Shown: positions 1 to 47,043, counted from the first letter of the stretch. The stretch is DNA of 64,000 nt from Rhizophagus irregularis (GCF_026210795.1 NC_089429.1:4030001-4094000); one strand, 5' to 3'. Numbers and translations: made by a program. Notes: generated by a model not told the origin, from the sequence alone.

Positions 1-157
1 CATAGTTGTCTTACCCGAGTCAGAACTTCCTGCTACGGCAAGACGGAAAGGCCATGATGGGGCAAACTCATTACCCTGTCTCGAGTCGGTCGTGTACTCG
101 TCCAAATTGTATACATAAAGATCCATTTGAATTTTATTCTATCTTAGTTTAAATACG

Positions 158-862
158 ATGTCGACACCAATTGCAATTTATACTCCTTCAGAGCCTACTG
201 GACCGCCTCCTAGGGATTTGCGTGATATGAATAATATACCATTAGTTGCGGTAATTAAGGATCTAACAGATTTTTTAACTGTCAGTGATCGCATGGTTGT
301 TAATCGAGATGTACAAAATGCAAACCATCGTCTTAAACATGCTCTTAATTTATTAATTCATCGCTGTAGAGAAACATACGAAGAACGCGATATATTAAAA
401 GCAGAACGTGATCGATCTCGAAAAGAACGTGATGAATTACAAGATGAACTCGAGGTTCAAACGGGTTTGTTAGGTCTTACACAAGATGAGCTAAATAACG
501 TACAAGATACTATTACTAGTTTAGAAGCTAATTTGGCTGAATTGGAACATGAGTTTGGTGGTATGCGGACGACTAATCGTCGTCTTCAGCAGCAATATAA
601 TCTTATGAGAGGAGAACGTAATAGAGCTATAGGTGAACGTAATAGAGCTATAGGCGAGCGTGATGTGGCACGAAATCGGCTTGTATATGCCAATAATCGG
701 GTTCTTTTTGGAATTCGGACATTGGGACGTCTTAGGAATCGACTTTTCCAACAAATAGCCGCTCTGCGTATCCAAGTACAATGGTTTCGGATTAGACAAT
801 TGAACCCTCCTCCACCTCCTCTCAACCATCCACAAAATACGATATGGCTGCCGTTGGTATAG
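158..862 (+). CDS. Coiled-coil protein, probably the N-terminal part of a frameshifted Gag
   Basis: Heptad-rich ORF with ERNRAIG repeats; ends in PPPPP and overlaps the start of the Gag-like ORF at 844. Confidence 0.55.
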   Translation: MSTPIAIYTPSEPTGPPPRDLRDMNNIPLVAVIKDLTDFLTVSDRMVVNRDVQNANHRLKHALNLLIHRCRETYEERDILKAERDRSRKERDELQDELEVQTGLLGLTQDELNNVQDTITSLEANLAELEHEFGGMRTTNRRLQQQYNLMRGERNRAIGERNRAIGERDVARNRLVYANNRVLFGIRTLGRLRNRLFQQIAALRIQVQWFRIRQLNPPPPPLNHPQNTIWLPLV

Positions 863-2064
863 CTGCCCCCATATTTCATGGTCGGGAAGATGAAGATCTT
901 AATCTTTTTATTGATAACTTTTTAGGGTATATTAATACCGTTGGTATTGATCCATTGGACGATGCCGGTGCGCCTCCGGGTCGGGTGCGAGCAATGGGGG
1001 TTCTTCGTAGCTGTATGAGAGATGAAGCGGCGAGGTGGTTTGATGCAGAACTTACTGGAAAAAATTGGGAACTCTCGAATATTCGGTTAGTGGCTACTGC
1101 AAATGGTGGAGCCGGTGCTACTCGCCGAGCGTTCAGAGCTTTAGCTGTTCCTGAGGTTGCTAATGGATTACATGTTGTACTACTTACTCCCGGGTCTGAT
1201 GCTGATGTATATTCAAGGGTTGCAGGTAATGCGGCGAGAACCGTTGGAGAAACATTTTTCCCATCACGCGCTGATATCGTTAGAACGAATTTTAAAGTTG
1301 AAGAGCAGTGGAGGCGTGCGGGCGGACGTCCTACTCATCAACCCGTTAATGGGTTGGGAGATCATGGAGGTCCATTCAATGCTGCTGCCCAGAATCAACC
1401 GATAGTCTTACAGGGGATTCTCCTGGATCAAGCATTTATGCATATGCGCACAAATTTTCCAACCGTCGTGGAAGAAAGACTTCAAATACGATTTAGTAAC
1501 CTTTACCAGGAACAAGGTGAACCTGTTCGATCTTACTATAAGCGAGTTGAGAGGGCTGGGGATATTGTAGGATATAATCGAATTATGGTTACTGACCAGT
1601 TCTATAGAGGACTTTTGCCGGAAAACGTTATTGAAGCTTCCAGAATCGGGGCGGCACCTCTTAATATATTAATCGATAGATTGAGTGATCTTGAGCGACG
1701 AAAGGGCGAAATGTTCTATGGATTACAAAGGCGTCAGGGTATTGAAAAAGCTAAAAAAGAGGAATTGGCTGGCTATACTCATCCCGTGACTCCACATGAA
1801 GGTGCTGTAATACAAAGGTCAACAGACGTTATTACTCAAGAACGATTACAAGAATTGCTCCAGCCGCAGCCGAGGAACTTACCAAGAACTTCCAGGCACA
1901 ATTTAAACAATTACAAGCATCTAAGCCAGTTCGTAAACCACCGGTCTATAGACAACAGATTAAACCTATTCGGCCGAAGCCACGGCCACGCGTTGTTCAG
2001 GATCATCAGGATCCGCGATTGGGATGATGGTTATGTAGATCATGATGTTGGTGATGACCCCTGA
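844..2064 (+). CDS. gag: Ty3/Gypsy-like Gag capsid domain (frameshifted near 1860)
   Basis: PIFHGREDEDLNLFIDNF, SCMRDEAARWF, LYQEQGEPVRSY and DQFYRGL align by eye with PLFYGKEDENVNDWVRQF, AHLRGAASQWY, IRQGKNENVEEY and DYYIDGL in the Gag of the LTR element later in the window. Confidence 0.75.
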   Translation: MAAVGIAAPIFHGREDEDLNLFIDNFLGYINTVGIDPLDDAGAPPGRVRAMGVLRSCMRDEAARWFDAELTGKNWELSNIRLVATANGGAGATRRAFRALAVPEVANGLHVVLLTPGSDADVYSRVAGNAARTVGETFFPSRADIVRTNFKVEEQWRRAGGRPTHQPVNGLGDHGGPFNAAAQNQPIVLQGILLDQAFMHMRTNFPTVVEERLQIRFSNLYQEQGEPVRSYYKRVERAGDIVGYNRIMVTDQFYRGLLPENVIEASRIGAAPLNILIDRLSDLERRKGEMFYGLQRRQGIEKAKKEELAGYTHPVTPHEGAVIQRSTDVITQERLQELLQPQPRNLPRTSRHNLNNYKHLSQFVNHRSIDNRLNLFGRSHGHALFRIIRIRDWDDGYVDHDVGDDP

Positions 2065-2332
2065 TGCTCCTGAATGGACTAGTGATGATGATCAACATGT
2101 TATTGATCTTATTATGGGATATGAGACGTCTAAAAGATTTCCAAAGCGACTTCAGAAGGCTAAAGATAGACGCGATGATTTGGAATTAGCCCGAGCAATG
2201 AGAAACCTCGATCTTAATGATGATGCTATGGATATTGATACTAATACCGCGAGTTTTGATGACTTGAAAATTGTTCCTGATGAGGAAGGTGGTTTTCGGA
2301 TTTGTGCGGTTCGAAGTACAAAAAAAAAGTAA
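2042..2332 (+). CDS. Gag C-terminal fragment
   Basis: AMDID motif typical of Gag C-termini; ends in an A-run (AAA AAA AAG TAA) overlapping the protease frame. Confidence 0.55.
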   Translation: MMLVMTPDAPEWTSDDDQHVIDLIMGYETSKRFPKRLQKAKDRRDDLELARAMRNLDLNDDAMDIDTNTASFDDLKIVPDEEGGFRICAVRSTKKK

Positions 2333-3051
2333 ACTCGGATAAGGGTGTAAGTATCTCGAAACTTCTTAAATCTGTTCCAAAAAAATCAGTTAAAATGACT
2401 CCTATTAAGATTCCTGTGAAGGTTACTAGTAGTAAGCCCACACTTATAAAAGCCGTCACCAAAAATGATTCATTAAGTTTATTAAGGTCTGCAGATTTTA
2501 GAAAATTACTCCGCGAGATTCTTCGGGAAGAATTAAAGTCTGCTCGTAAAAGTACGGAGATTCCGGAAGACCTAGTTGAGGAAAAACAAGAAGAGGATAT
2601 CAGGGAAGATGATCCGATGGATATTGACATAGCTCGTTTGGAGAATACTAAAGATCTTTTAGCGCTGGATGGGGAGGTCAATGGGATAGCAATTCAGTGT
2701 TTAGCAGACACTTGTGCTAACGCGTCTTTTATTCAGAGGGAAGCCGCTGAAGAATTAGGGTTGAATATCGACAAGAGTATTACACATAACATATCCGGCG
2801 CTCCGGGTTCTGGTAGGACATTCGGCATGGTAAAAGGTGTGTCAATCAAACTAACCCCTGATTGTGTAATCACTGAGAATCTCGCGGTTTTAAGCGATTA
2901 CAAGCATAGGGAGATTGGATTGAGCCGGACGTGTCTGAAACGTTACAATTATGATGTCCATGAATCACGTGAACATATCGCCCTTACTTGTAATGAGAAG
3001 AATGTTTTTATCCCGATAGTTTCTGACGTGAATCGAGGAGACAAAAAATAG
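2302..3051 (+). CDS. Retropepsin-like aspartic protease
   Basis: GEVNGIAIQCLADTCANASFIQREAAEELGL...ISGAPG...IGLSRTCLKRY matches the retropepsin pattern; DTC replaces DTG. Confidence 0.8.
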   Translation: MCGSKYKKKVNSDKGVSISKLLKSVPKKSVKMTPIKIPVKVTSSKPTLIKAVTKNDSLSLLRSADFRKLLREILREELKSARKSTEIPEDLVEEKQEEDIREDDPMDIDIARLENTKDLLALDGEVNGIAIQCLADTCANASFIQREAAEELGLNIDKSITHNISGAPGSGRTFGMVKGVSIKLTPDCVITENLAVLSDYKHREIGLSRTCLKRYNYDVHESREHIALTCNEKNVFIPIVSDVNRGDKK

Positions 3052-3065
3052 GGAATATTTATTTT

Positions 3066-4157
3066 TTATTCCCAAAACTTGCGGATTAAGGCAGGGACAT
3101 CCTCCTCCAACCGGTCAGCGGGTTCCCAAGTGGCTTCGGTATCTGGGTATCGTTCCCACTTGACTAGATACTGGTCTCGACCCTTCCTGATGCGATGCCG
3201 GAGTATCCGCTCAGGTACAAATCTTTCGGGTTGCCCTCTTATCACGGAGTCAGGTGGGGGATATTCATTTTCTGGAACAATCTGCAACTCTTTTCGGGTG
3301 TACGCACATCTGGATACACCTAGTCGCCCGTGTGGTCCAAAGAAGATACGTAGGAGGTTGTTCGGGTGAGAGTATCATTTTTTTGATGACACGAATATTG
3401 GGATTCCATCTTATGTCACCTGTACGAAATTTTCCATGAAGTTTATTACCGAGTACTGAGATAGGTTCATCTAACTTTACTTTCGGACACGCGTTCCTTC
3501 AGAGAGAAGGTCCGTCTTTTTTGACACTTTTGGTGATCCAGTCGGAATGTCTGGGGGATTTCTTTGCCAGATTTCATCTATTTTACTAACCACATCATGG
3601 AAATCTTCTGACCATTCCACGGATGTCACCCCGGTCTTCAACTCCTGTGCTACCATTCGTTTGAGAAGGGGTTCTTGAATAGCTTGGATAGCTCGTTCAG
3701 CGTATGATTGCTGTTTGTGTCTTCCCGGTTCTCCAAACCTCATCATCACCCCTAGGCTGTTCAGGAAAAAATCACGTACCTGATCATTGGTGAATTCTGA
3801 TCCAGAGTCTGTCTCTATTCGATGTGTTGGTGGCTTAATGCGATTTCTTCTGTAGATTTTAACAAATCCATTGAGAACCCTATTTGCAGTTTTATCCTTT
3901 AGGGGTTCTGCGTCGACTCGTTTACCCGCGACTTCCACCAATACGAGGAAATAGTGGAATCCTTTGGGGTCGACTGGCATCTCTGCGAGATCTGCCTGAT
4001 GCGTCGCATTTGGTTTCCATACAACTACTCGTGGACGCTCTGATGACTTCTCCTTTAGGGGCTTTTTGTATAGGTTGTAGTGCTCCTCACCTTTTAGAAT
4101 TCGTGCTGGTACTCCGGAGAGATTGTAGTATTTGTAGTAATTCTCTAATTGCGACAT
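3066..4157 (-). CDS. Maverick/Polinton-type DDE integrase with C-terminal chromodomain (frameshifts near 3480 and 3340)
   Basis: PNATHQADL, ETDSGSEF and YAERAIQAI give the DDE triad. After frame correction it continues KFRTGDIRW...PEQPPTYLL...YTRKELQIVP, then chromodomain ERILRHRIRKGRDQYLVKWERYPDTEATWEP. No HHCC domain. Confidence 0.85.
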
Positions 4158-4201
4158 ATTACGACAAATTAAAGGAAAGATTTTGGACTTCAAATCTTAA
4201 A

Positions 4202-4534
4202 ATGACACGATTTTACTGCCTAAAGTGTAAGAAGGAAACCGAGACTGCTAGTGAAATACAAGATATGACCACAAATGGGCGTTACCGGCTGCATGGCGAT
4301 TGCACAGTTTGTGGTATGCATATGAATACTTTTACTGGGATAGACTGGGTTATCAAAAAGAAAACCAAGGAGAAGAAAAAAGAAACTGCGGCTAAAAGAC
4401 ATCAGACGGCGTACAATCGGCAATGCAAAAAACTCGGGCAGAAAATCTTAGATTCTGATGACACGTGTAAGCAGTGTATTGATAAATGCCTTAAGGAGGC
4501 AAAAAGAGGAAGACGGATTAGTACCGCCTTCTAA
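4202..4534 (+). CDS. DUF5679-like Zn-ribbon protein
   Basis: MTRFYCLKCKKETET...TTNGRYRLHGDCTVCG pattern; ATG at 4202, divergent from the integrase start at 4157. Confidence 0.7.
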   Translation: MTRFYCLKCKKETETASEIQDMTTNGRYRLHGDCTVCGMHMNTFTGIDWVIKKKTKEKKKETAAKRHQTAYNRQCKKLGQKILDSDDTCKQCIDKCLKEAKRGRRISTAF

Positions 4535-5046
4535 AAGTATTCCTCATCATCCGAGTCATCGAGAGATACCTCTCCATCATCTGATTCATCGTCCGAGTCA
4601 TCAAGAGTGCGGCCTTCCTTAAGCAATTGGATGTTGTACGTTATTTGAGTCCATTTCTCCCAGTCGGACTCTTGCGTTATAAAGCCACATCTGAGAAGAG
4701 CTCTTTCTACTGCCACCATTCCTGCGAACCTAGTGTATTTTTTCTGATCGGCTTCATTGAAATTGCCAATGGCCTCCCTGTAGTAGTCTACTGCCTGTTT
4801 GTATACCTCCTCAGCTTCTTTATATCGCTTCCACAACTCGGCTTTACAACCGTTGTACCAGAGTCTGTTTATCTTGAGATGTTTTCCGAATTCTTTGATC
4901 GGAAGGTTTCTGACCATCTCTCTTACTATGTCCGGGTCGTTGAAGGGCGAAGCCTGCATTTGGATCCATTTACGGATTCCATAGATGTCTACAAGATCGA
5001 GACCAAGATCTTCGGCAAGAGAAGTGGCGGCGTGTAAGTTTATCAT
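4531..5046 (-). CDS. Hypothetical protein with acidic tail
   Basis: Clean 171-aa ORF whose stop overlaps the stop of the convergent Zn-ribbon ORF. Confidence 0.55.
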   Translation of the reverse strand: MINLHAATSLAEDLGLDLVDIYGIRKWIQMQASPFNDPDIVREMVRNLPIKEFGKHLKINRLWYNGCKAELWKRYKEAEEVYKQAVDYYREAIGNFNEADQKKYTRFAGMVAVERALLRCGFITQESDWEKWTQITYNIQLLKEGRTLDDSDDESDDGEVSLDDSDDEEYF

Positions 5047-5225
5047 TGTATGTTACTTATAGTTACCTAATCTTCAATTGCCGAATGTATTTTTTCCAAA
5101 GATCCGCGCTTCTACCCGGTTATCTCTCTGTGGCTTTACAGACCTTCTAGGGGCTATTAACCTACCTGTTTACTCGGTTTGCTATCTCACTGCTTCCGAC
5201 AGATGAATAGACTGAATCCTGATCA

Positions 5226-5445
5226 TATGACAGATCTATGACAGAATGACAGATCTGGGGGGGTAAAATCAAAACTTTTTTCTGGGAGTATCACCTCTCC
5301 CGATTTTTCTGAAACATCTGTCATATCCGTCATATCTGTCATACCCCTCTGATTCTATCGTATTTTCCTCTCTTTTCCCTTATTTCATTCTTTTTTAGTA
5401 TATTATTATATGACAGATGTTAATGACAGATAGTGACAGATATAG
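5226..5445. repeat. Iteron-like TGACAGA repeats (3 forward, 3 inverted, 3 forward)
   Basis: atgacagatctatgacagaatgacagat ... atctgtcatatccgtcatatctgtcat ... atgacagatgttaatgacagatagtgacagat. Confidence 0.8.
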
Positions 5446-5539
5446 GGGATTCCTACCCCACGGAGGGGAGATGTAGGTACTGCGAGGCCCCTGGCCGAGG
5501 TGGGTTGAGCGTAGCGAGACACACTACCAGCCCGACGAC

Positions 5540-7338
5540 AGTCTGCCTCCTATACTGTTTGCCGTCGTGCATAGTGTGTTATAGGAAAAGGCGGACTTGA
5601 ATTATATAGGTGTAAGCTTATGTTATATAGGCGTAAAGCTTATATAATTAACGCAATGAAAATCCTTTAATCAAAGGTTAAAATAGGCATGATGGGATAT
5701 TCTCATATATCATGAGCTCTGTCTGTTCGAAGTGTCGTTTTATATATAATTAAGTAGGCTTAAGTTGTAAGTAACTTTTTTATAACATTGATTATTGGAG
5801 AATGGAGAATTAAGTGGCAAAAATAATTTTTAGTTTGTAAGACTTTAACTCCATACCAACTTGTGTGTGTTTGGCGTATATTTTATTCCCTAACCCTTAG
5901 ACCCACTCGTGGGTTGGTAGGTTGCTTTGCACTTCTTGCAGCCTATCTTTAATGGGTTTTAGGTCCACGTTTGCCCATTTAAAATTTATTAAACAGGATG
6001 TCATTCGTCTAAACACATTGCAACGTTTGTTGATGAAGCTATAATTGTCTAATAAAAGTTCGCTTTGCCAGGCAATTTATGGTGGATTCAATGGATCAAA
6101 TTACAAACAACAATAATGCAGTCATATGAGAATTCCAGGCCAAAGAATAAGGGTGAATTGTCAAAGTTGAAAATATATTTGTATTTTTTTTTTAAAGCCG
6201 TCATTCTCATGAACTTTTTCATTGTATCCCTAAGTTCAATGATTTTGGTAATAATGAAACTGCAGTTGTTTACAGGGGTTTCCCGCCAAACTTCTGAGGT
6301 GAATTTATGTCTGGTGTTTTCGAATCTACTTATCCTTTTTGCAATAGAGTCATAGCGAGTCTTCTTAAAGCGTACCTGTGACATCCCATCCAATTTGGGC
6401 AGTGTCGCTGAATCTAAAGCAAGGTACCCGGTTAATCCTCAACTTTGGGTTGATGAGTTATGATTCTGGAGTATTAAGGCATAATGTTTTGACTTACATT
6501 ACCAATTTAACTCATAATTCTAATTTATTGAATTAGTTTATTATAGATTTATTGATATTTTTTTTTATCTGTTATATAATATTTAAACTAATGTATACTT
6601 TATCTGTAATTAAAATTGTTATTGTAATAAATAATCGGTAACTTAAATCTATTGAAATTAACTTTTAAATTAGATTACAAATTATTAAAATATTATAAAA
6701 TTGAATTTAACGATATTTGATTGATTTGATATTTTTAAAGGTAAATTCAATATTTATAGATAATATCATTTTGATATTATTTTGATACTGAATTAATATT
6801 AAAATAATATTATATTGATATTGCATTTATTAAAAAAAAATCATTATTGTTATAACAATATCAAAATGATATCGTTTCGTTATATCAAAACGATATCATA
6901 TTAATATCGTATTTACTTTCTATTTTTCATTATTGTTATAACAATATCGAAATATCGAAATGATATCGATTTGATGTTTCGTCAATATCGTTATGATGTC
7001 GATTAGATAATTATAAAGTGATATCTTTACAATATCATATTGATATTGAATTAATGTTGGAACGATATCATATTAATATCATATTTACTTTCTATTTTTC
7101 ATTATTGTTATAACAATATCGAAATGATATCGATTTGATGTTTCGTCAATATCGTTATGATGTCGATTAGATAATTATAAAGTGATATCTTTACGATATC
7201 ATATTGATATTGAATTAATGTTGGAACGATATCATATTAATATCGTATTTACTTTCTATTTTTCATTATTGTTATAACAATATCGAAATGATATCAATTT
7301 GATGTTTCGTCAATATCGTTATGATGTCGATTAGATAA
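5540..7338 (-). repeat. Inverted copy of ~12170-13961 (arm of a sibling DNA transposon), including a 164-bp GATATC-rich tandem array
   Basis: 5540 agtctgcctcctata... is the reverse complement of ...tataggaggcagact 13961; mirrored ORFs 6088-6393(-) and 13115-13420(+). Confidence 0.9.
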
Positions 7339-7717
7339 CATCACGAAGTTGATCAAATGTTAGACATGTATTCATCAAACACAAATTATTTAATAAATGC
7401 TTAAATTTTGTATTTACTGAATGCTTAATGTTTTATGAATACCTATTTGTATTTAAAATCAGTATTTAGTTATCATTATAATAGATTACAAATTAAATAT
7501 TTATCATTAAATACTTTATAATTGCTGCTTTAACAAAACGCTTAAAAAATATTTTAGATTAATACTTATTAATTGCTATGAAAAAAAATACCAATTAAGC
7601 ATTTGAATTTATCATTAAAAAGGTATAAAATATGGGCATTTAAATTTTATTATTTTTTATATTAAGCCTTAGAGGCTTTTCATAAGTACCTTTAGTATAA
7701 TAATATAAACTTTGACT

Positions 7718-8742
7718 TAGTGCTTCGAACAGGTCAGGTGATTTCAGGTGACCTGATCAGGTTGTCCTGAAATAATAATGAAAGCTTCAACCTGACCTGG
7801 TTGACCTGTTAACCTGAAAATAAAAAACATAGTTTTTCATTTTTTATTTATTAAAAATGCCAGTTTATGGCATTTTTCATATTTATTTATGAAAAAAACG
7901 CCATTCTGGCGTTTTTTCACTTTTATTTCTTTTATTTACAAAAAATGCTGGTTTATGGCATTTTTTCACATTTATTTATGAGAAAAAACGCCATTCCGGC
8001 ATTTTTTCACTTTTATTTATAAGAAATGCCAGTTTATGGCATTTTTCTCATATTTATTTATGAAAAATGCTGGTTTATGGCATTTTTTATCATATTTATT
8101 TATGAAAAATACCGGTTTATGGCATTTTTTTCATATTTATTTATGAAAAAAATGCCATTCTGGCATTTTTCACTTTTTTTTATAAAAAATGCCGATTTAT
8201 GGCATTTTTTTCATATTCATTTATAAAAAAAATGCCATTCTGGCGTTTTTTCACATTTTTTAATGAAAAATGCCAGGCCGTGACATTTTTTCATAATTAT
8301 TTATGAAAAAAAATGCCATTCTGGCATTTTTTCACTTCTATTTATGAAAAATGCCGGCTTATGGCATTTTCATTATTTTTTATGAAAAAAAAAGCCATTC
8401 TGGCGTTTTTTCACTTCTATTTTGAAAAATGCCAGCTTATGGCATTTTCATTATTTTTTATGAAAAAAAAAATGCCATTCCAGCGTTTTTTAACTTTAAT
8501 ACCAGTTTATGGCATTTTTTTCACTTTTATTTATGAAAAATGCCAGTTTGTGGCATTTTTTCATTATTTTTTATGAAAAAAAGCCAATCGGCGTTTTTTC
8601 ACTTTTTATTTATGAATAATTACCCATCCTGAAAAAATCAGATTAACCAACTGACCTGACCTATTCAGGTCAAAGGTTCGGTACAGGTCACCTGATCTGA
8701 TTCAACCTGAAAAAAAGTTTCGCCAGTTGACCCGATCTGAAG
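7718..8742. mobile_element. Degenerate hAT-like MITE with internal tandem palindromic repeats
   Basis: Starts tagtgcttcgaacaggtcagg, same style as the 59827-60912 element; internal aaaaatgcc...ggcattttt repeats at 7850-8620; right end eroded. Confidence 0.55.
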
Positions 8743-9647
8743 GAAAAATGTCTTAATTCCTAAAATTAGTGACGAGAATCATGTGATATAGATTATCAAA
8801 TTGATAATTTTTTTTTTTCCAACGAAGTTTCACCTTTTCCATTTTTTCTTCACCGAATTTCTTATAAGCTTATTTATCAGGATTTACATTACATTTCCTT
8901 TTCCCATTTTCCTTCCCTTCGTTTTCTTTTTTTTGTTCTTTTTTTTATTCTCTCCATTTCCATTTCCTTCATTCTTTTTCTTCTTCAAATTCGTTCTTTC
9001 CTCTTTTTCATCCTTCCCCACTTCTGTTTAAAAAAAAAGTTAAAATCACCTACAAAAAAAATCCAAAATTCTTTTTTTAGATGGTTATTTCGGTCTCCCC
9101 GGACACAACATTTCCGGTAAACTATTTTTTTCTTCAATTATATTTATTTTAACAAGCTAGTTTCTAATGGCTCATTTTTTTAATTTTTTTTAGACGGTTT
9201 TGTTCTTTTTTTGTATATTTAGATGCGTGGAAATTCAGTTTCATTTTTTCTTTTTTTAAACAGTTCTTTAGTTTCTTTTGACATGTAAGTTTTCGGTATA
9301 TTTTTTTTTATTTTCCTTAATTTAACTACTCTGACGAACTGTTATTAACAGTTCACTTTTTTTTCTTTTTTAGGGCTCTTCAAATTTTTGTCACATTTCT
9401 TTAGGAATTCGGTAAGTCTTAATTTTTTTTACTAAATTTTTTATTTTTAACGAACTATACTAATAGTTCATTTCTTTTTCTTTTTTAGGCAGATCTTTCT
9501 AGTTTCTGGAGTTTAGATGGCTTGGATTTGAGTACTTGAATTTGGTAAGAGAGGGGCTATTTTTTATAATTCTTTAATGAAATGTTTACTAACGTTTCAT
9601 TTATCTTTCTCTTTTTAGACAGCTTCTTTTTCTTCAAGTCTTTATAC

Positions 9648-9890
9648 TAAGGTTGCTTGTTTAAACCTCTTCAAAATCCTACGATTAGTTTCATCAAAAT
9701 TTTACTATAGATTTATTATAGTTTCGGCAGAGTTTCAGCAGTTTTGGCATTTATAATAAGTTTTGGCAGTTTCGCCTTTCTCCAAAGTTTCACCAGTTTT
9801 TAATATAACTTTAATATAGTTTCGGCAGAATTTCGCTTTTCGGGAAAACGCCATCTTGCCTAAACCCCTAGGTTTTGGCAAGCAACCTTA
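9648..9890 (+). mobile_element. hAT-type MITE (TAAGGTTGCTTG family), copy 1
   Basis: TIR taaggttgcttg/caagcaacctta; 8-bp TSD ctttatac. Confidence 0.92.
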
Positions 9891-10934
9891 CTTTATACGC
9901 GCAGATTATGGTATATATATTTTTTTTTTGTTTTTTAAACATTTTTATTATAACGAAATGTTAACCTAACAATTTCATTTTTTTATTTTTTTAGGCAGGT
10001 CTTCGGCTCTTTGGACATGACATTTCAGTAAGTAATTTTTTTCTTTTATTTATTTTAACGAAACGTTTATTAACATTTTGTCTTATTTCTTTTTTTTTAG
10101 TCAGCTTCTTTAAAACTTCTTTGACGTGGATTCGTAAGTTTTTTTCTTTTTTTTCTTTTATTTATTTTAACAAAACGTTTACTAACGTTTCATTATTTTT
10201 CTTTTTTTAGACGGATCTTGGATTCTGGTAAGAAACCAGAAGAAAATTTTTTAATTTTATTATTTAATGAACCATCTTTAATGTTTCGTTATCTTCCTTT
10301 TTTAGACAGCTTGCTCTTCAGACTTGGATGGCATGCATTATTTGAATGAAATCATTTTGTTACAATCTGTGACTAAAAATGATGAAAATCAAGATGGGAT
10401 AATAGAAAACGCATTGGATTAGGTGAGCTATTTTTTCGCTATTATTTGTTTTAACGAAACGAATGAAATGTATTCTAATGTTTCATTCTTTCTTTTTTTA
10501 GATGGACCTGGACATGTGAGATTTCGGTAATTGTTTTTCTTTAAAATTTTTTTTTAACAAAACGTTTGCTAACATTTTGGTTTCTCTTTTTTCTTTTTTT
10601 TTAGGCAACTGGTTCTCTGGTTCTCTATCGGGAATTTTAATAAAGATATGGATAATAATAAACATAATAATACACTTGAAAGTGAAAAACAGGTCCATCC
10701 TACTTCTCGTACTTCATCTAATAGTAATACATCAAATAAATAGATAGCTACATTGATTCCAATGGGTTTTTTTTTTATTTTTATGAAACGTTTATTAATG
10801 TTTCATTATTTTTTTTTTAAACGGAACTTGGATTCTGATTCTCCAGGTCTGAACACGTTGGATTTAGGTACTTCTACTTCAGTAAGTATTGGAGTTTCTT
10901 TGATTTATTTCTTTAATGAAACGTCTTACTAACG

Positions 10935-11313
10935 TAGAGTTCCAATCCGTCATCCGACGGATGATCAATCTCTTCTCATTTATTTTTGGAAAGAGACATT
11001 TATGTTTCATAATTTATAATTTAGGAACTGCATTCGATGTAAGGTGATCAGACTATGCATTATTTAATTAATTGAACATAAAATAAATGGGGTGAAATCT
11101 TAGTCGGATTGAAATTTTCATCCGTCAGATGATATTTTAATCCGTTCCTAATTTCTCCTCACTTTCATTTTTGAAAAAAAAGTTTATTTATTAAATTATA
11201 TACTGTATTATGCTCTTAGGATATCCTTAAAAAAAAATGCTCTTTTATATTAATTAAATGAGCGTACAACTGTCAAAATGTGATTATCCGTCAGATGACG
11301 GATTGGAACTCTA
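10935..11313. mobile_element. hAT-type MITE
   Basis: TIR tagagttccaatccgtcatc/gatgacggattggaactcta; 8-bp TSD tactaacg. Confidence 0.92.
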
Positions 11314-11879
11314 TACTAACGTTTGATTTTTATCTTTTTTTTTCTTGATGACCAGATGACCAGATCTTTGAAAGCATAGAATTTTGGTAAGAGGAATCTG
11401 AAGTATTTTTTTTTGAATATATTTCCTAGTTTTATTTATTTAATTTCATTCTCTTTTTTATTAGATAACCTGGTCTCCAGATGCATGAAAATTCGTTAAA
11501 GAATTGGAAATCTTTTAATTTTAAATGGCAGGGAGGGTCTTTGGAAGTATTGAAAATTTTAATTAGTTGTAATATTATATGTAATATAACAGGACAATAT
11601 GTATATATATAATAATAAAATTGAGTAGTAAAATAATAATAAATATCAATATTAAAATAGCGTAATATACTATTATTTATTATATAGTAATTAATTTCTT
11701 TACAGAAACCTTGAATTTTTAAACAATACCGAATTGATATAATAATGATGTTAAATAAATATCGTGGCGATATCGATTTGCAAATGATATCATTATGATA
11801 TCGCAATGATATCATTTCAATATTAATTCAATATATCGAAATGATATCGTAAAGATATTTGTTTGAAAAAATATCAGAT

Positions 11880-12660
11880 CAATATCATTTCGATATTGTT
11901 ATAACAACAATGAATTTTTTGAAAAATGGGAAGTAAATACGATATTAATATGATATCATTCCAACATTAATTCAATATCAATATGATATCGTAAAGATAT
12001 CACTTTATAATTATCTAATCGACATCATAACGATATTGACGAAACATCAAATTGATATCATTTCGATATTGTTATAACAATAATGAAAAATAGAAAGTAA
12101 ATACGATATTAATATAATATCGTTCCAACATTAATTCAATATCAATATGATATCGTAAAGATATCACTTTATAATTATCTAATCGACATCATAACGATAT
12201 TGACGAAACATCAAATCGATATCATTTCGATATTGTTATAACAATAATGAAAAATAGAAAGTAAATACGATATTAATATGATATCGTTCTAACATTAATT
12301 CAATATCAATATGATATCGTAAAGATATCACTTTATAATTATCTAATCGACATCATAACGATATTGACGAAACATCAAATTGATATCATTTCGATATTGT
12401 TATAACAATAATGAAAAATAGAAAGTAAATACGATATTAATATGATATCGTTCCAACATTAATTCAATATCAATATGATATCGTAAAGATATCACTTTAT
12501 AATTATCTAATCGACATCATAACGATATTGACGAAACATCAAATCGATATCATTTCGATATTGTTATAACAATAATGAAAAATAGAAAGTAAATACGATA
12601 TTAATATGATATCGTTTTGATATAACGAAACGATATCATTTTGATATTGTTATAACAATA
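11880..12660. repeat. Tandem array of 164-bp GATATC-rich units (~4.5 copies)
   Basis: Repeated tatcatttcgatattgttataacaataatgaaaaatagaaagtaaatacg... unit. Confidence 0.9.
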
Positions 12661-14757
12661 ATGATTTTTTTTTAATAAATGCAATATCAATATAATATTA
12701 TTTTAATATTAATTCAGTATCAAAATAATATCAAAATGATATTATCTATAAATATTGAATTTACCTTTAAAAATATCAAATCAATCAAATATCGTTAAAT
12801 TCAATTTTAATAATATTTAATAATTTGTAATCTAATTTAAAAGTTAATTTCAATAATAGATTTAAGTTACCGGTTATTTATTACAATAACAATTTTAATT
12901 ACAGATAAAGTATACATTAGTTTAAATATTATATAACAGATAAAAAAAAATATCAATAAATCTATAATAAACTAATTCAATAAATTAGAATTATGAGTTA
13001 AATTGGTGATGTAAGTCAAAACATTATACCTTAATACTCCAGAATCATAACTCATCAACCCAAAGTTGAGGATTAACTGGGTACCTTGCTTTAGATTCAG
13101 CGACACTACCCAAGTTGGATGGGGTGTCACAGGTACGCTTTAAGAAGACTCGCTACGACTCTATTGCAAAAAGGATAAGTATATTCGAAAACACCAGATA
13201 TAAATTCACCTCAGAAGTTTGGCGGGAAACCCCTGTAAATAACTGCAGTTTCATCATTACCAAAATCATTGAACTTAGGGATACAATGAAAAAGTTCATG
13301 AGAATGACGGCTTTAAAAAAAAAATACAAATATATTTTCAACTTTGACAATTCACCCTTATTCTTTGGCCTGGAATTCTCATATGACTGCATTATTGTTG
13401 TTTGTAATTTGATCCATTGAATCCACCATAAATTGCCTGGCAAAGCGAACTTTTATTAGACAACCATAGCTTCATCAACAAACGTTGCAATGTGTTTGGA
13501 TGAATGACATCCTGTTTAATAAATTTTAAATGGGCAAACGTGGACCTAAAACCCATTAAAGATAGGTTGCAAGAAGTGCAAAGCAACCTACCAACTCACG
13601 AGTGGGTCTAAGGCTTAGGGAATAAAATATACGCCAAACACACACAAGTTGGTATGGAGTTAAAGTCTTACAAACTAAAAATTATTCTTGCCACTTAATT
13701 CTCCAATAATCAATGTTATAAAAAAGTTACTTACGACTTAAGCCTACTTAATTATATATAAAACGACACTTTGAACAGACAGAGTTCATGATATATGAAA
13801 ATATCCCATCATGCCTATTTTAACCCTTGATTAATGGATTTTCATTGCGTTAATTATATAAGCTTTACGCCTATATAACATAAGCTTACACCTATATAAT
13901 TCAAGTCCGCCTTTTCCTATAACACACTATGCATGACGGCAAATGGTATAGGAGGCAGACTCTACTTTCAGAAAGAAAGTTTTTTTTTTAAAAAAAAAAA
14001 ATGTACAAAATAAATAGTTTTAAATAAAATAGTGGTTAATTGACTTTTTAGGAATTAATAGCCTTATAATATACGCGATCATTTAATATACGTGATTATT
14101 TAATCAGACAATTTATTAAATTTGGTATTACACGAACTTGATCAACCTGATAATTGTTTAGTCTTTTATAGGTGGATATTTCTTGAATTATCACCTGAAC
14201 TTTTCAATTTTTTGCAGAATCGAAGATGAAAACCGGAAAAGTATTCTGATTCAGAATTTTTTTAAGAAATGTGTTTGTTATTTTGTAAATTACCAGTCAG
14301 AATTGGCTTAAACTTTAAAGTTCTTACTTTACGCAAATGTTACGTAAATGTATTCTTTTTGATCTGTATAATAATGTCAAATATATAGAGATATTTAGGC
14401 CGTATACATTAAAGAAGAAACGTCACATAATAACCATTCCATTTTTAACAAAACAACAATTACTTTTTAAACTTGAAAGTGTTATATCTTAGACAAACAT
14501 TTTATAGTTTTATACATCCATTTTATTTTATATTATTATCACTTGACATTATGGTATAATGTTTAGAATAATGATGTTTCATATTATCATTTACTTGTAA
14601 AATTTACTAAATTTATTCAATGTAATATCGTTATAAAATGCATAATTTTATAAAAAAATTAGAGCGTTTGCTAAGATTTATAACTATGTATAATTTAATA
14701 ATATTATTAATAACTATGATTAAAGGATATGAAGTATCAGTATAAATAAAATAACTT

Positions 14758-33427: not shown

Positions 33428-34938
33428 CGCAAGAAAGGAAATGATCATCATCACATGATTATTATTATAATGAATATGAAAATTTAATTTCGTTAGTAAG
33501 TCACTGATAGGTATTATTAATCAATATTTTATTTTTAGAATTTATTTTTAGATTTCAGGTTTTTGACGAGTTCAAAAGGAACCAATAAGTCAACAAGGAT
33601 TTAATCGAGTTAAAAACTTGGAAAGGTGAAAGATTGGAGTTTGTTGTTGTGCAAGTAATCATTTAATCGATAGAAAGCACAAGAATATTTCTTTCGGGAA
33701 TAAAGTACCTGAGAAATTTCATAAGGAGATGTGGAAGCGAAAGATGAATTTTGAAATAAAGATTAATAATGGGAGAACACCAATGTATTATCTGGGATTC
33801 ATCTGTGTGGTATGGGTTACCTCTGAGTTTGAATTTTGGATAAATGCTCGAGATTGGAAAATTTTTATTCTTCGACATTAAAGATTATAACGTATGGGTT
33901 ACGTCAAATCTGGATACCCAGCTCAATAATGCGCAAATTGCTTTGGGGACGGGGAACGAAAATTGTAAAGACACCTACTATCAAGAAACATTGAATGGAT
34001 AAAATGGGACAAACCTGTAAACTATCATGCTTTTACCCAATGGGAAAAAGATAGAGATAAGCCCAGTATAGGTCCACCAATTTGAGGAAAGATAAGTTGG
34101 TTTAGATGAGTTTTATGGATAGCTGATGACTTTTGAAACTGGATTTTGGAAGGTTAGATTCACCCGTTAAGAGACGAGTCGGCCAACGAAGGAGGAAAGA
34201 CAGATGCGTTGTATTGTTACAGGTCCTAGGCTACATTTCAGATGAGGGTTCCTGGTGTAGTGTGCTAGGTCACGCTTTCATTACAATGTTCTGTTAAAAG
34301 AAGATAAAGTAGAAGGATATTTACACATTAACGAGCTGTATAATGAATATTATGTGCAGTATTTAATAATAGAGTAAAATCCGAAAAGAAGGACATTTAT
34401 TAAAAAGAAGAACATTTATTTGAAAAAGAATATTTATTTGAAAAAGAACATTTATTTGAAAAGAAGGACATTTATCTGAAAAGAACGACATTTTGTGCGT
34501 TATAGATTAATTTATATAATATAGAATATATAGAGCAAGAAGGATTTATGTGGATGATAAGAAAGATGTGATATGTGATATGTGAAATTATGAATCACGG
34601 TGATAGGAGATAAATTTTAGAATGTGAAATTATGGATATCGGTGATAAAAGATAAATTTTATGGCGCAGTAAAAACCTCCGCAGTCTGAGGAGATCGTGG
34701 ACTTAGAATAATTTTTGAAATTTTGAGGCGCAGTAAAATTAATAGTAAAACATGGCGTAGTAAATATATAAAATTGAAAGATGGAGTTTAAAGATTGAAA
34801 GAAGTAATCTATTTAAAGATAAAAGAATGTTTAGAAGATCAAAAATAGAAATGATAAGAGTGAAATATATATATATAAAGAGAGGAATCCGATTGAGATT
34901 CTGGATGGATATTCATAGCAATTTAACTAAAGCATACA

Positions 34939-37900
34939 ATGGAATGGTACCATCAATGGGAAAGTGAATATAGAACACATAAGGAGGAACACGAACTAGG
35001 AACAGAAGAATTGGACGAATGTTTAAATTGTGAATTGTGTCATCCGATAGTAAATGAACCAATAGTGTTCAAGAAATTTTGGGACGCATTATTTAAATTT
35101 GAAGATGCAATAATAATATATAATGATGTAACAATTAAAGGATTATTAGATTTATTAAGTATGGATAATTCAGAAAGAGAAGATACAATACATAAGGGGA
35201 AATGTAGAGACATAATGGATAGAATAACAGAATCAATAAGATATAGGATACAGCCGAAAATAAAAGAGAAGGGATTACGAACAATCATATTAGTGATTGT
35301 GAGGGATTGTATTGAAAGAAATCTGGGAAATGAAGTATTTGATAGATTGATTGGAAATCCTGAATTGATAGAACACAAATATATTTTAGAAGATTGGGAT
35401 GTTGAAAGAAAGTTTGGGAAATTTTGGCAATGGTACAGAATCACATCGAAAGAAATTGGACCATTACGAGTAAAGATGGGAGCAATGAAGACATTTAGGG
35501 AATTACTATATGAAGAAGAAGGAATAGCTACGAACGAGGAGAAAGTAAAGGAATTAATGTCCAATATGGAATACGAGAACATAAATATAGAAAATGTTCA
35601 CGAATATCACAGGAATATGGTACAAAAGATAATAAGAATATTTATAGATACTAGGGGCTTTACAAAAGAACCAGAAGATTCAGAAAGTGAAGATAGTCCA
35701 GCAAGTTATGAATTAGAAAATAGTTCTGAGGAAGAATTAGAGATAATAATAGGGGACAAATCATGGAAATTTAGTGAATTAAAAAGAAGGACAAGCTCTA
35801 TAGACGAAGATCAATTGAGATACATTTGGAAGATAGGAATAAAGTTGATGATAGAAATGGATATATTGGTAACGAAAACATTTATAGATAAAGTTCAGGA
35901 GATAGAGGAAATCGACGAAAGGGAAAAAGAATTGAAGATAAGAGAATGGTTAGAAAAAGAAACAGTAATATGTAAAAGATGCGGTAATAGAAGGTTCGAA
36001 ATGGACAAAACAGATAATGAATGTGGGGAATGTATTAAAGAAATGCAGAAAGATGAACAAGATGAGTTAGCAGAATTAAAAGATGAGATAGAAAAGTTAG
36101 GATATGAAATAGATGTATCAGAAATTCAAAGAATGAAGAGTTTTGGGGTAAATAATCGAATATTAATAACAGAAGAATTTATAATGGAATATATGGGAAT
36201 AATAGAATTGGAAGATAAAGAATTAAGAAGAGAAATTCATAAGTGGTTAAATGAGAATACAACTTGGTGCGAAAGGTGCGAAATAAGATGGATGAATAAT
36301 ATGTTTAGATTTGGAGGAACTGTATGCAAAGATTGTGAAGAAGAAGATGTTGATGAAATTGATGATCGGGTAAAAAGATTGCAGAAGATTTTTGAAGATA
36401 TCGAAACAATAGTAACTGAAGAAGAATTGTTAAGATTAACCAGTATGGGATATACAAATGGAGAAATTTTAGATAAAGAATTCATTGAGATCTTTCAAGA
36501 AAACAAGAATGAGTCAGAAAAAGAATTGAAGAAAAAGTTAGATAAGTTATTGAAAGAACAAGCAGGAATAATAGATAGTGAAGAAAGTGGTGAAAAGAGT
36601 GATAATGAAGAATCAGAAGAAGATAATACAGATGATTCAGAAAAAACTGGAGAAATATTAAGTCCAGATGAAATATGGAATGAAAATATCGAAAATTTTA
36701 ATGAAGAAGAGTTCGAAGATGAAATTGAAAATGTTATAAATAGAGGAGGTATTGACTTAAGTCAAAACTCAGATACGAATAGTTCATTAAATATTAAGAA
36801 TTCGGACAACGAAAGTGAATTATCTGATTACAATTTACAAGATTTATTTCAAGAAAATATGGCAACCGAGAATCAAGTAAAGAGATTAATAGAGAACGCT
36901 TTAGGTTATCCAGCTAATACTTTGAATGCAGCAGTAGGAGCAGGAGCGAGTTTGATAGATAGAATTGAAAATGCAGGGAATGAAGCAGGAGGAATGGTTA
37001 GTGTACCACTCTTTTATGGAAAAGAAGACGAAAATGTTAACGATTGGGTTAGACAATTTGAGGTAGCATTTACAGCAGTCGGAAAAGCAGCAGGAGCTAA
37101 TGGTGTAAGACAAGCGGCATACGCAGCAGCACATTTAAGAGGGGCAGCATCACAATGGTATAATGAAATGAAAGAAGTAAATGCAGGTAACTTAGTGAAT
37201 TGGGCGGATGCAGATAATGATAATGATTTAAAGCATAGAATAAAAAGAAGATTTACTAGAGAGGATGTCAGAAGAAAGAAAATGCAAGAATTAAGAAAAA
37301 TTCGACAAGGAAAAAATGAAAATGTTGAGGAATACACAGGAAGATTTAGACAAATATTAAGGATAGCAACTAGAGGACATGCCTTAGCAGATGATTGTCA
37401 AGTAGATTATTATATTGATGGATTGGAACCAGCAATAGGGTTTCAAATTAGAAGACAGAATCCGGAGAACTTAAATGGGGCAATAGAAATGGCAGAAAGA
37501 GAAGAAAGTGCAAGGGACGAATTTTATAGGAAAATAATAGGTTTACCAGTTAGTACAAAGATAGACATCGGAAGAGATGATAATAGACAAAATATGTTCA
37601 CAAAACCATTGAACGAAAATTATGAGGACGAATTAGTCAAAGCGTTTGAGGAAAAGGCAAGAATTAGTAAATTAGAAGGACTGGTATCAAATATAGAGAG
37701 AAGATTAAATAACGATAATAATAGGTATCGATCAAATATGGGAAGGAGATTAAATGATGGTAATAGGAATAGTTATCAATCAAATCAAAAAAGGGTACCG
37801 ACATGCTATACATGTGGTAGAATTGGTCATTATTCAAGAGAGTGTCTGGGGAAAAGAAGGAATGCAAGAGTAAATATGATGGACGAATACGATGACCAAG

Positions 37901-38580
37901 AAGAATATGGTTATAATGGATATGAAGATGAGGAACCACAATACAGTGAAATGTATTATACACAAGGTTATTACGATGATTATGAAGATAGGGAATTAAA
38001 TTACCACAATGAATTATACGCGAAAGATAACGCAGTAAAAACAAGAAGACAAACGAGAAGGTCGAATCCAGTAGTGGGATATAAAAATAATAATGAAGAA
38101 GGAAATTTACAAGAAGAATTAAGAGAAGCGGGAAATAGAATGGATGATAGAGAAATACCAAGTGGAACAACAACACCAAGATATACGCCCGAAAGGACAG
38201 AACAAAATAATGTATACAAAGATAGTCAAAATTGGGATAATCCAATAGGACCAGAAGATTATAATTATGGTCGTCGACCCATGACAAAAGATGGAAGATT
38301 TTATAAACCAATGTTCACAAAAGAAGGCAAAGCATTTTACCCTGGAATGCGGCAAGACGAATTTGGAAATTGGGTTAGAACAAAGCCATCAGGGACAGGA
38401 AAGTCCAGAGAATATGGACCGAGATTAACTGATGGAATACCACCTTACGACATTGTGGGAGACGTGAAAAATTGTAGAGCGAATATAACATTTGGACAAT
38501 TAACAAATGAGAATACTAAGTATCATAAACAATTAAGGGAAGGAACATATAAGCCAAGAAGTGTAAATGAGAGAAATTGA
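34939..38580 (+). CDS. gag: Gag with ~640-aa N-terminal extension, capsid domain and CCHC zinc knuckle
   Basis: PLFYGKEDENVNDWVRQF...LRGAASQWY...IRQGKNENVEEY; CYTCGRIGHYSREC. Confidence 0.9.
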   Translation: MEWYHQWESEYRTHKEEHELGTEELDECLNCELCHPIVNEPIVFKKFWDALFKFEDAIIIYNDVTIKGLLDLLSMDNSEREDTIHKGKCRDIMDRITESIRYRIQPKIKEKGLRTIILVIVRDCIERNLGNEVFDRLIGNPELIEHKYILEDWDVERKFGKFWQWYRITSKEIGPLRVKMGAMKTFRELLYEEEGIATNEEKVKELMSNMEYENINIENVHEYHRNMVQKIIRIFIDTRGFTKEPEDSESEDSPASYELENSSEEELEIIIGDKSWKFSELKRRTSSIDEDQLRYIWKIGIKLMIEMDILVTKTFIDKVQEIEEIDEREKELKIREWLEKETVICKRCGNRRFEMDKTDNECGECIKEMQKDEQDELAELKDEIEKLGYEIDVSEIQRMKSFGVNNRILITEEFIMEYMGIIELEDKELRREIHKWLNENTTWCERCEIRWMNNMFRFGGTVCKDCEEEDVDEIDDRVKRLQKIFEDIETIVTEEELLRLTSMGYTNGEILDKEFIEIFQENKNESEKELKKKLDKLLKEQAGIIDSEESGEKSDNEESEEDNTDDSEKTGEILSPDEIWNENIENFNEEEFEDEIENVINRGGIDLSQNSDTNSSLNIKNSDNESELSDYNLQDLFQENMATENQVKRLIENALGYPANTLNAAVGAGASLIDRIENAGNEAGGMVSVPLFYGKEDENVNDWVRQFEVAFTAVGKAAGANGVRQAAYAAAHLRGAASQWYNEMKEVNAGNLVNWADADNDNDLKHRIKRRFTREDVRRKKMQELRKIRQGKNENVEEYTGRFRQILRIATRGHALADDCQVDYYIDGLEPAIGFQIRRQNPENLNGAIEMAEREESARDEFYRKIIGLPVSTKIDIGRDDNRQNMFTKPLNENYEDELVKAFEEKARISKLEGLVSNIERRLNNDNNRYRSNMGRRLNDGNRNSYQSNQKRVPTCYTCGRIGHYSRECLGKRRNARVNMMDEYDDQEEYGYNGYEDEEPQYSEMYYTQGYYDDYEDRELNYHNELYAKDNAVKTRRQTRRSNPVVGYKNNNEEGNLQEELREAGNRMDDREIPSGTTTPRYTPERTEQNNVYKDSQNWDNPIGPEDYNYGRRPMTKDGRFYKPMFTKEGKAFYPGMRQDEFGNWVRTKPSGTGKSREYGPRLTDGIPPYDIVGDVKNCRANITFGQLTNENTKYHKQLREGTYKPRSVNERN

Positions 38581-38589
38581 CTACACTCG

Positions 38590-39093
38590 GTGGAAACTAT
38601 GAAAAACGAAGAAAAGAGAACTACAGCAATGAGAACAGAATTAGAAGTTGAAGATCAATTAGTGAATGTAATAATAGATACTGGAGCAGCAGTAAGCGTG
38701 ATAACAGATAAATTAAGAAGAAGATTGAATATACCTATATTTGGAAAAAGTAAATTTAGATGTACAATAGCAAATGGGCAAAAGATAGCAGCGTTAGGAA
38801 AGGCGAATATAACTTTGAGGTACAAAGATGAATTAGAAATACTGAAAGAAGTTGAAGTAATCGATTCAGAAGAAGAGGATCTAATTTTGGGAAATGACAT
38901 ATGGAAGTTGTATAATGCAAAAATAAATTTTGAAGATCATACCTTAAGAATAGAAGAACAGGGAGAAATAATAACGATTCCAGTAGGATATGAAAGAGAA
39001 GTAGCATATGAAAGTGAGGAGAGTGAGGACGATGAAGAATATGAAAGCAATGATGAAGGAGAGGTATTCAAAATGCACCAGAATTTTAAATAG
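38590..39093 (+). CDS. Retropepsin aspartic protease
   Basis: VIIDTGAAVSVI and LILGND motifs; same frame as gag after TGA-CTA. Confidence 0.93.
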   Translation: METMKNEEKRTTAMRTELEVEDQLVNVIIDTGAAVSVITDKLRRRLNIPIFGKSKFRCTIANGQKIAALGKANITLRYKDELEILKEVEVIDSEEEDLILGNDIWKLYNAKINFEDHTLRIEEQGEIITIPVGYEREVAYESEESEDDEEYESNDEGEVFKMHQNFK

Positions 39094-39128
39094 AGAGTCT
39101 TGGCTCTGAAGAGAGAGAGACGGAAAAG

Positions 39129-41210: not shown

Positions 41211-41270
41211 AAATACAGAACACATAACGAAAATAACAAATTTAGAAGCGAAATCAATTAAAGAGGTATT

Positions 41271-46606: not shown

Positions 46607-47043
46607 TAAGGTTGCCTGCCGAAACTAAAAAGGAAATTCCGAAAGGTTTCGGCCAATCAAATCAAATGCCGAAAATGCCGAAATTAGGCCGAAACTCGGT
46701 CTTAATTTTGGCCAAAATTAAAATTCAGCCGAAATTATGATATTGTGTCACGTGACATTACACAAATTTCCAAAAAAAGGAAATTTTGTTTCCCAGTAAA
46801 ATCGGAGAAATGTGTCACACAAATGTTACACAAATTTCCATAAAAGGAAATTTACGTGTCGATCATTATTCCGGCCAGAATTATAGTATTAATGTTGGCC
46901 AATAATTTCAGACAAATTTCGGCCTTTCGGTAAAGTTTCGGCATTGTATAATTTCGGCAAATTTACTTTTAATTGCCTAAACTTTCGGTTTTAAAAAAGT
47001 TTCGGCCTTGGTCTAAACTACTTGATTTCGGCAAGCAACCTCA
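46607..47043. mobile_element. hAT-type MITE inserted in the LINE endonuclease SDH motif
   Basis: TIR taaggttgcctgccgaaa/tttcggcaagcaacctca; 8-bp TSD ggtcactg. Confidence 0.92.

Follow-up and report, generated by a model that had tools for sequence, protein, structure and literature searches.

Why does an integrase of the type carried by DNA transposons sit beside the Gag and protease of a retroelement? The locus that raises this question comprises positions 1-5539 of a 64,000-nucleotide stretch of the Rhizophagus irregularis genome (GCF_026210795.1 NC_089429.1:4030001-4094000; the whole stretch is hereafter the window), where a first-pass annotation made from the sequence alone had described retrotransposon Gag and protease genes paired with a Maverick-type integrase. 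Our preferred answer, held with somewhat more confidence than doubt, is that this is the right-hand part of a decayed Glomeromycotina Maverick/Polinton copy, and that its Gag and protease (Gag-PR), a conserved pair, likely constitute a particle-forming and maturation module that replaces the double-jelly-roll capsid genes; the capsid role is one that we infer.

From left to right, the locus encodes the start of a packaging ATPase (1-126, minus strand), a coiled-coil protein (158-862, plus strand), a Gag-like protein (844-2332, plus strand), a retropepsin-like protease (2302-3051, plus strand), a convergent integrase-chromodomain protein (3066-4157, minus strand), a DUF5679 protein (4202-4534, plus strand) and a 171-aa open reading frame (ORF; 4531-5046, minus strand), followed by a repeat-rich end (5047-5539). 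The features listed in the first-pass annotation all lie where it had placed them, including the convergence of Gag-PR with the integrase-chromodomain gene (14 bp separate the protease stop at 3049-3051 from the chromodomain stop at 3066-3068), the DUF5679-like gene, the orphan ORF and the iteron-like repeats. The high guanine-plus-cytosine (GC) content that it reported is also borne out (0.39-0.45 across 1-6000, and mostly 0.24-0.35 in the remainder of the window). Its gene list overlooked the ATPase start and the frame breaks. Judged against R. irregularis proteins and intact metagenome ORFs, there are three such breaks in the Gag gene (near 1860, 2016 and 2058) and two in the integrase gene (near 3480 and 3340); in other copies (sequencing run X5) one base is missing at 2016 and at 2058. 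Read from its sequence, the window copy itself is dead.

The first segment of the Gag-like gene (844-2064) comprises 406 codons, and after the single-base frame changes other frames carry on to the stop at 2330-2332. Intact relatives are 437-487 aa long, and the ORFs are intact in six other lineages. No Pfam family was found in 844-2064. The product matches the gag ORF of a Ty3/gypsy element elsewhere in the window (BLASTP E 1e-4), in the region of that ORF that matches Ty3_capsid and Retrotrans_gag, and a profile of 14 family members matches the capsid C-terminal domain (CA-CTD) of PEG10 (E 1.4e-4). The family members L033, P0240 and P0261 reach or exceed the Retrotrans_gag cut-off. When an AF2 model of the Gag (pLDDT 71) was compared with known structures using VIA-align, the 35 top-ranking rows held nothing but capsids of retroviruses, retrotransposons, Arc or PNMA (Z 9.7 to 4.4), including HIV-1 CA (9.7), PEG10 (9.6) and two-lobe matches to dArc1 (8.3) and copia (7.7); unrelated structures appeared only at Z 4.2 or below. 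Profile, sequence and model together show the Gag to carry a predicted retroviral capsid fold. About 130 residues between the two lobes were unaligned in the fold search, in agreement with the earlier proposal of an insertion of that size relative to the Ty3 Gag of the window (we place it at ~120-130 aa). A CCHC knuckle is present in a family member from R. clarus, and the zinc knuckle is absent from the Gag of the window's lineage. A predicted two-copy Gag complex scored 0.00, which gives no verdict. Among the 98 proteins that match the Gag ORF, all those with a species name belong to R. irregularis, and numerous gene models, 600-711 aa in length, fuse the Gag part to Asp_protease_2 and lack a reverse transcriptase (RT); remoter members of the family occur in R. 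clarus and Entrophospora sp.

The protease ORF consists of a Lys-rich linker followed by the core and lies in the -1 frame relative to Gag. Asp_protease_2 matches 2302-3051 at E 6.9e-8 and 33.5 bits (Pfam cut-off 24.3); among the relatives, L046 (30.9 bits) and L015 (26.8 bits) pass the cut-off, and L033, L023 and L008 fall under it. BLASTP detected no similarity between the protease and the Ty3 element of the window. The active-site motif, D-[TS]-G in retropepsins, is D-T-C-A here. Across seven lineages the catalytic Asp and the Ser/Thr that follows it are invariant, and the third position is Gly (L023, L033), Cys (the window, L011, L046) or Ala (L008, L012). A run of nine A's (A9, 2320-2328, plus strand) directly 5' of the Gag stop is the predicted -1 shift site. 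The protease is in the -1 frame at all 12 Gag-protease junctions available (the window and 11 loci, about seven lineages), and each junction has nine A's between variable flanks. As far as sequence can tell, this layout is that of retroviral gag-pro, and the predicted slippage could be ribosomal (A AAA AAA/G beside the stop) or transcriptional (A9 to A10). NCBI gene models span the A9 site with an 85-base GT..AG intron (2305-2389). A conserved intron at this junction was not seen in the diverged loci, and the splice joint is not listed in the RNA contigs, whose cover is too thin for either answer. All aligned lineages have two copies of an acidic motif, (P/A/D)-M-D-(I/T)-(D/S), one close to the C-terminus of Gag and the other immediately N-terminal to the protease core. 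The window copies (about 2215-2240 and 2610-2640) flank the Lys-rich trans-frame linker, and the pair represents possible protease cleavage sites.

We gathered 56 soil-metagenome loci with an alignment of the ATPase and searched them with the window proteins by tblastn. These loci include near-duplicates and represent about seven lineages, with Gags 33-46% identical to that of the window. Of the 24 loci whose sequence extends 1,500 bases or more upstream of the ATPase, 22 carry Gag in that stretch, on the opposite strand; the two exceptions (L054 and L055) have an ATPase of just 29% identity. Gag is followed by the protease in 13 loci, a chromodomain/integrase gene is convergent on the protease in nine, and DUF5679 comes next in four. 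In L033 and L046 something other than an integrase converges on the protease: a 166-aa ORF (103-600) in the former and an ORF with an acidic C-terminus (1-210) in the latter. Thus, the right arm is variable: the link of Gag-PR to the ATPase is general, and the junction of protease and integrase is not. As had been noted for the locus, no RT or RNase H accompanies Gag-PR. When the sequences of both from the window's Ty3 element were used as tblastn queries, neither the 56 loci (at E up to 0.01) nor positions 1-5600 of the window (at E up to 0.1) gave a match; RVT families are absent from 24 long Gag-family proteins, and no long terminal repeat (LTR) was found. Sequence comparison across the loci supports the conclusion that Gag-PR is a stable gene of the element and not a chance insertion.

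Two of the contigs, L023 and L044, share a 5.1-kb stretch at 98.8-99.8% identity, and positions 1-123 of L023 match 9718-9840 of L044 exactly in reverse complement. From its sequence we read this as a terminal inverted repeat, cut by the contig end and 123 bp or more in length. The ~12.5 kb between the repeats holds eleven ORFs, in the order 115-aa zinc-ribbon ORF, DUF5679, integrase-chromodomain, protease, Gag, coiled-coil protein, A32 ATPase, 184-aa ORF, 211-aa ORF, protein-primed DNA polymerase B (pPolB) and helicase. The polymerase (626 aa in L044) matches DNA_pol_B_2 with 27.6 bits (cut-off 25.8); its homologue in L015 is 663 aa long, and there are 89 homologues, many from R. irregularis. 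A pPolB in the window's own copy is predicted from these relatives. The helicase (797 aa) matches DUF5906 and Pox_D5 (3.2e-22). The 184-aa ORF has a weak DUF3760 match, with an F-box-like ORF at the same position in the L015 lineage, and the 211-aa ORF combines a zinc ribbon and a winged helix and is modelled as helical. No jelly-roll capsid, penton or adenain was identified among the composite ORFs using Pfam, PHROGs and one fold model. The proposal that this is a DNA virus-like element gains support from the relatives: they encode the protein-primed PolB, the D5-like helicase and the A32 ATPase, and they carry terminal inverted repeats. A Ginger-type cut-and-paste transposon was dropped as a candidate because relatives carry pPolB, helicase and ATPase genes.

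Gene content varies among the lineages: L015 has extra ORFs of 171 and 140 aa, and L025 has a 1193-aa ORF. In L025 (2154-5732; also L022:3155-3685) an ATPase ~51% identical is followed not by the pPolB set but by this ORF, which carries an endonuclease VII domain (Pfam 1.8e-6, PHROG 1.8e-8); it may belong to a different replication module. An ORF for a bacterial-type ABC transporter ATPase (ABC_tran 4.2e-25) lies in L004 (2041-3045), ~850 bp 3' of a truncated element ATPase, and this contig could be a chimeric assembly.

Only the first 42 codons of the ATPase, with Walker A, lie in the window, and the gene leaves it at the left. They match the N-termini of PF04665 (Pox_A32-type, FtsK/HerA) proteins: 86 proteins (75-2000 aa) match, mostly of 330-430 aa with PF04665, from R. 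irregularis, R. clarus and metagenomes. Full-length relatives score 44.4 bits (L023) and 37.1 bits with Pox_A32 (cut-off 22.8). The A32 ATPase serves Polintons and large DNA viruses as their packaging ATPase. A viral contig set scanned with the ATPase alignment yielded no relative. The adjacent coiled-coil protein (234 aa; 228-457 aa in relatives) has a heptad-rich alignment, matches Pfam coiled-coil families only and shows no BLASTP similarity to the Ty3 element of the window. It ends in a conserved I-W-L motif, and the Gag ATG sits within the final ~20 bases of its ORF, in the -1 frame (844-862; the window and 12 loci), which suggests coupled translation or a compact viral-style transcript.

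The integrase gene is a pseudogene with an rve core (3477-4157), an SH3-like segment (about 3340-3480, in another frame) and a chromodomain. Pfam places Chromo at 3066-3287 (5.6e-19) and rve at 3477-4193 (2.3e-9), both on the minus strand, and intact relatives of 364-369 aa have rve and Chromo. Only ~45 residues lie N-terminal to the core, and Pfam did not detect the Integrase_H2C2 finger in the window integrase or its relatives; the Ty3 element of the window has one. Identity between the two integrases of the window is 25% over 103 aa. The nearest Atlas clusters, which are leads only, are rve and Chromo proteins labelled Preplasmiviricota, 'F54H12.3' and Parabasalia. In sequence, the integrase looks like the Maverick or Polinton-like virus (PLV) type and not the chromoviral one, and the motifs on which the first-pass annotation had based that assignment are present.

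To the right of the integrase, and divergent from it, is the zinc-ribbon gene (DUF5679, Pfam 6.7e-18), found at the equivalent place in L015, L021, L023 and L034; no solved relative or NCBIfam family was found for its product. The 171-aa ORF has weak F-box-like leads (Atlas scores 0.78-0.81, leads only) and matches a 183-aa ORF in L030 (BLASTP E 0.002). The terminal non-coding region is, from the example of the relatives, likely the right terminal inverted repeat. It contains seven copies of TGACAGAT within 5228-5441, in both orientations; across the whole window there are nine, against 2.06 expected, and none of 100 shuffles reached nine. The region ends in the left arm of a palindrome (5519-5579), whose hairpin is unremarkable (z -0.87; the L044 counterpart has z -3.19). 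A separate 8.4-kb element (5540-13961) begins exactly at 5540, so 5539 is the true right boundary. This neighbour begins with AGTCTGCC and consists of two arms, 5540-~7338 and ~12011-13961, that are 97-99% complementary (an inverted repeat) and contain tandem repeats. The interval between the arms has no ORF of appreciable size, and no matching 6-bp duplication was found at the flanks of the neighbour. Its first ~40 bases pair with the last ~25 bases of the Maverick to form the palindrome, and thus the termini of the two elements may be related.

The family is a known one. Table S1 of Krupovic et al. (2014; PMC4028283) lists Glomus Polintons of 11,019-11,954 bp without a major capsid protein (MCP), penton or protease, and with the ATPase in one. 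The relevant passages of Bellas and Sommaruga (2021; PMC7805220) report no MCP in G. intraradices. Mavericks are described as expanded in Glomerales (PMC11952901), and A32 ATPases of Glomus and Rhizophagus are grouped with Maverick-Polintons in the parts of published work that treat them. The elements Polinton-1_GI / P_Gi1.1 and P_Gi1.2 of Glomus (Rhizophagus) intraradices, comparable with ours by description only, come from the same host group and are slightly shorter than the ~12.5 kb found here; published texts call them capsid-less, and Table S1 of PMC4028283 has no column for Gag or aspartyl protease. We conclude that the element described here is this "capsid-less" Glomus Polinton, and that the possible 'new hybrid class' of the first-pass annotation was an overstatement.

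The likeness to Gag and protease has probably also been drawn once before. The Figure 5 legend of Starrett et al. (2021; PMC8502044) describes a PolB element with Gag and retropepsin similarity (labels 'Matrix/Capsid/NC/Pro' and 'S3H'), which the body of the article leaves without discussion, and the Figure 3 legend names Rhizophagus as a PolB source. Compared by legend, that element has the same combination of Gag/Pro and PolB as ours. Apart from this legend, a literature search that did not extend to figures and preprint supplements yielded no analysis of Gag or retropepsin in fungal Polintons. Four of our results do not occur in the relevant passages of PMC8502044, and appear to be new: the lineage-wide conservation, the -1 junction at A9, the gene set bounded by repeats, and the evidence for the Gag fold.

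Canonical Mavericks/Polintons and adintoviruses (Preplasmiviricota) share with this family pPolB, an rve integrase with a C-terminal chromodomain, the A32/FtsK ATPase, terminal inverted repeats (here as seen in the composite) and a length of 12-20 kb. Unlike in canonical Mavericks, Gag, retropepsin and a coiled-coil protein are present where MCP, penton and adenain were not found, and a D5-like helicase lies beside pPolB. A D5-like or other helicase also occurs in PLV, which have a capsid module and mostly lack pPolB and integrase; here, pPolB and an integrase are present and the capsid module was not found. Ty3/gypsy chromoviruses (Metaviridae) share the Gag capsid fold, a retropepsin reached by a -1 frame change and an integrase chromodomain, whereas our element lacks RT, RNase H and LTR, has its integrase on the opposite strand without H2C2, has no zinc knuckle in the window's lineage and has the Gag insertion of ~120-130 aa. 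Among domesticated Gag genes (PEG10, Arc, PNMA2 and MOAP1), PEG10 gave the best sequence and fold matches (CA-CTD E 1.4e-4, Z 9.6). PEG10 joins Gag to a protease via a -1 frameshift, without RT. Domesticated Gags of the PEG10 type are single-copy animal host genes, whereas the pair described here belongs to a multi-copy mobile fungal DNA element.

In the mechanism that we propose, the element would replicate using its protein-primed polymerase and helicase and would integrate, via the chromodomain integrase, at its repeat-rich ends. Gag would be made in excess, with a rarer Gag-PR fusion produced by ribosomal or transcriptional slippage at A9. The protease would cleave this fusion, possibly at the PMD(I/T)(D/S) motifs that flank the linker, and the Gag shell would enclose the element's genome. 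The fullest version of this proposal, an integrating protein-primed DNA virus of arbuscular mycorrhizal fungi whose particle is Gag matured by a -1-frameshift retropepsin and which has kept the FtsK/A32 ATPase, is one that we put forward only tentatively and consider rather doubtful.

Several observations weigh against a capsid role for Gag-PR. The replacement of the active-site Gly by Cys or Ala makes the activity of the protease uncertain. No consistent RNA structure was detected 3' of A9 (z 0.68, 0.11, 0.76, -1.55, -3.20, 0.40 and 0.54). Co-divergence of Gag and ATPase was not borne out: the Mantel r is 0.68 (0 of 2000 permutations as high), but the Spearman coefficient without pairs >90% identical is 0.10 (p 0.07). 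Gag dN/dS is 0.30-0.63 at saturated dS, a weak sign of constraint. In the structural comparisons, the 50 Foldseek matches listed are all CA proteins and Gag proteins lead in a viral structure library, including ORF1 of a fungal metavirus, but no Foldseek match had an E of 0.001 or below. The fold tool also cautions that Z below ~13 is common for helical models, and our claim regarding the Gag fold is based on the uniformity of the match list and the sequence evidence, not on Z values. The composite is built from two metagenome contigs of a single lineage, other than that of the window, and its repeat is seen over 123 bp only. The sequencing runs used for the expression check were in the form of contigs, and X19, the sole clear RNA library, gave four small contigs, which fall within Gag, linker and chromodomain sequence and could be contaminating DNA; beyond these four, no particle, protein or transcript was seen. 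Finally, in known viruses the A32/FtsK-type packaging ATPase works with jelly-roll capsids, and its retention here without one may point to a capsid gene that was overlooked.

The chief rival to our preferred reading, to which we give a distinctly smaller share of belief, is that Gag-PR is conserved and does not package the element's DNA, the element being a capsid-less transposon. The pair may then interfere with competing Ty3-type retrotransposons in the manner of Gag-derived restriction factors, form RNA particles like those of Arc and PEG10, or serve in tethering or in trafficking between the nuclei of the coenocytic hypha. This agrees with the published view, as worded in the relevant passages of PMC7805220, that Glomus Polintons lost their capsid genes in the course of a transposon lifestyle. 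The closest solved relatives include the domesticated Gags PEG10, Arc and PNMA2, together with Drt2, a restriction factor derived from Ty1 Gag; the absence of the zinc knuckle from the window's lineage and the variable active-site Gly point the same way, and the genome is rich in Ty3 elements, of which the window holds one. However, A9 and the -1 frame of the protease recur at all 12 junctions, as would be expected of a structural polyprotein produced at a fixed ratio, the packaging ATPase kept beside the module argues for some particle, and the Lys-rich linker, from its composition, could bind nucleic acid.

Ranked after a non-capsid role, and in our view improbable, is the possibility that a jelly-roll capsid gene is present and was missed, either as too diverged or as part of the left portion of the window's element, which lies off the window; Gag-PR would then be accessory. 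The retained ATPase, the off-window left part and the differences in gene content among lineages (the additional ORFs of L015 and L025) favour this, as does the history of the group, in which Polinton capsid genes were long difficult to detect, according to the account in PMC4028283. Yet the composite ORFs of at least 100 aa are all accounted for, with none both long enough and unassigned; the coiled-coil protein is heptad-rich and the 211-aa ORF helical; and the two published surveys, one using sensitive profiles and one using new viral capsid profiles, report no MCP in Glomus elements in the sections that treat them (PMC4028283, PMC7805220).

That Gag-PR is what remains of an LTR retrotransposon which happened to insert into a Maverick at this locus hardly merits credence: retrotransposons do insert into integrated virophage-like elements of another host, as a passage of PMC8547959 records, and the window copy is decayed, but this explanation is refuted because the Gag-ATPase linkage (22 of the 24 loci that reach far enough, their Gags being 33-46% identical to that of the window), the -1 overlap and the A9 junction recur in relatives with ORFs intact in six other lineages, and neither an RT nor an RNase H was found in the loci, while the GC content of Gag-PR matches that of the rest of the element.

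Elsewhere in the window, the Ty3/gypsy element used for comparison (34927-42350, plus strand) has a gag ORF of 1217 aa, in which ~690 residues precede the capsid domain. In the pol ORF (39090-41207), residues 469-593 weakly match P-loop NTPases (E 4e-4 to 1e-2) after RNase H, near the ORF C-terminus, and the integrase is a separate ORF (41262-42350) 3' of pol. A further region (44058-47812, minus strand) contains long ORFs of 433, 180, 140 and 264 aa with a GC content of 0.34-0.38, which resemble another mobile element.

Polintons are given a basal place in the ancestry of many eukaryotic DNA viruses, and those of Glomus/Rhizophagus have served as the standard example of elements in which no capsid can be detected, a lack interpreted as a slide to pure transposon life. 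A stable Gag-protease pair with a predicted retrovirus-like mode of expression and an adjacent packaging ATPase makes an exchange of capsid modules between reverse-transcribing elements and jelly-roll DNA viruses a testable proposition. If the element is indeed a virus with a Gag particle, a virion morphogenesis module would have been swapped between two virus realms, and the 'capsid-less' status of fungal Polintons would be resolved. For the fungus, which is ecologically important, supposedly clonal and host to recently expanded Mavericks, such a particle would be a possible vehicle for the movement of DNA between nuclei or strains.

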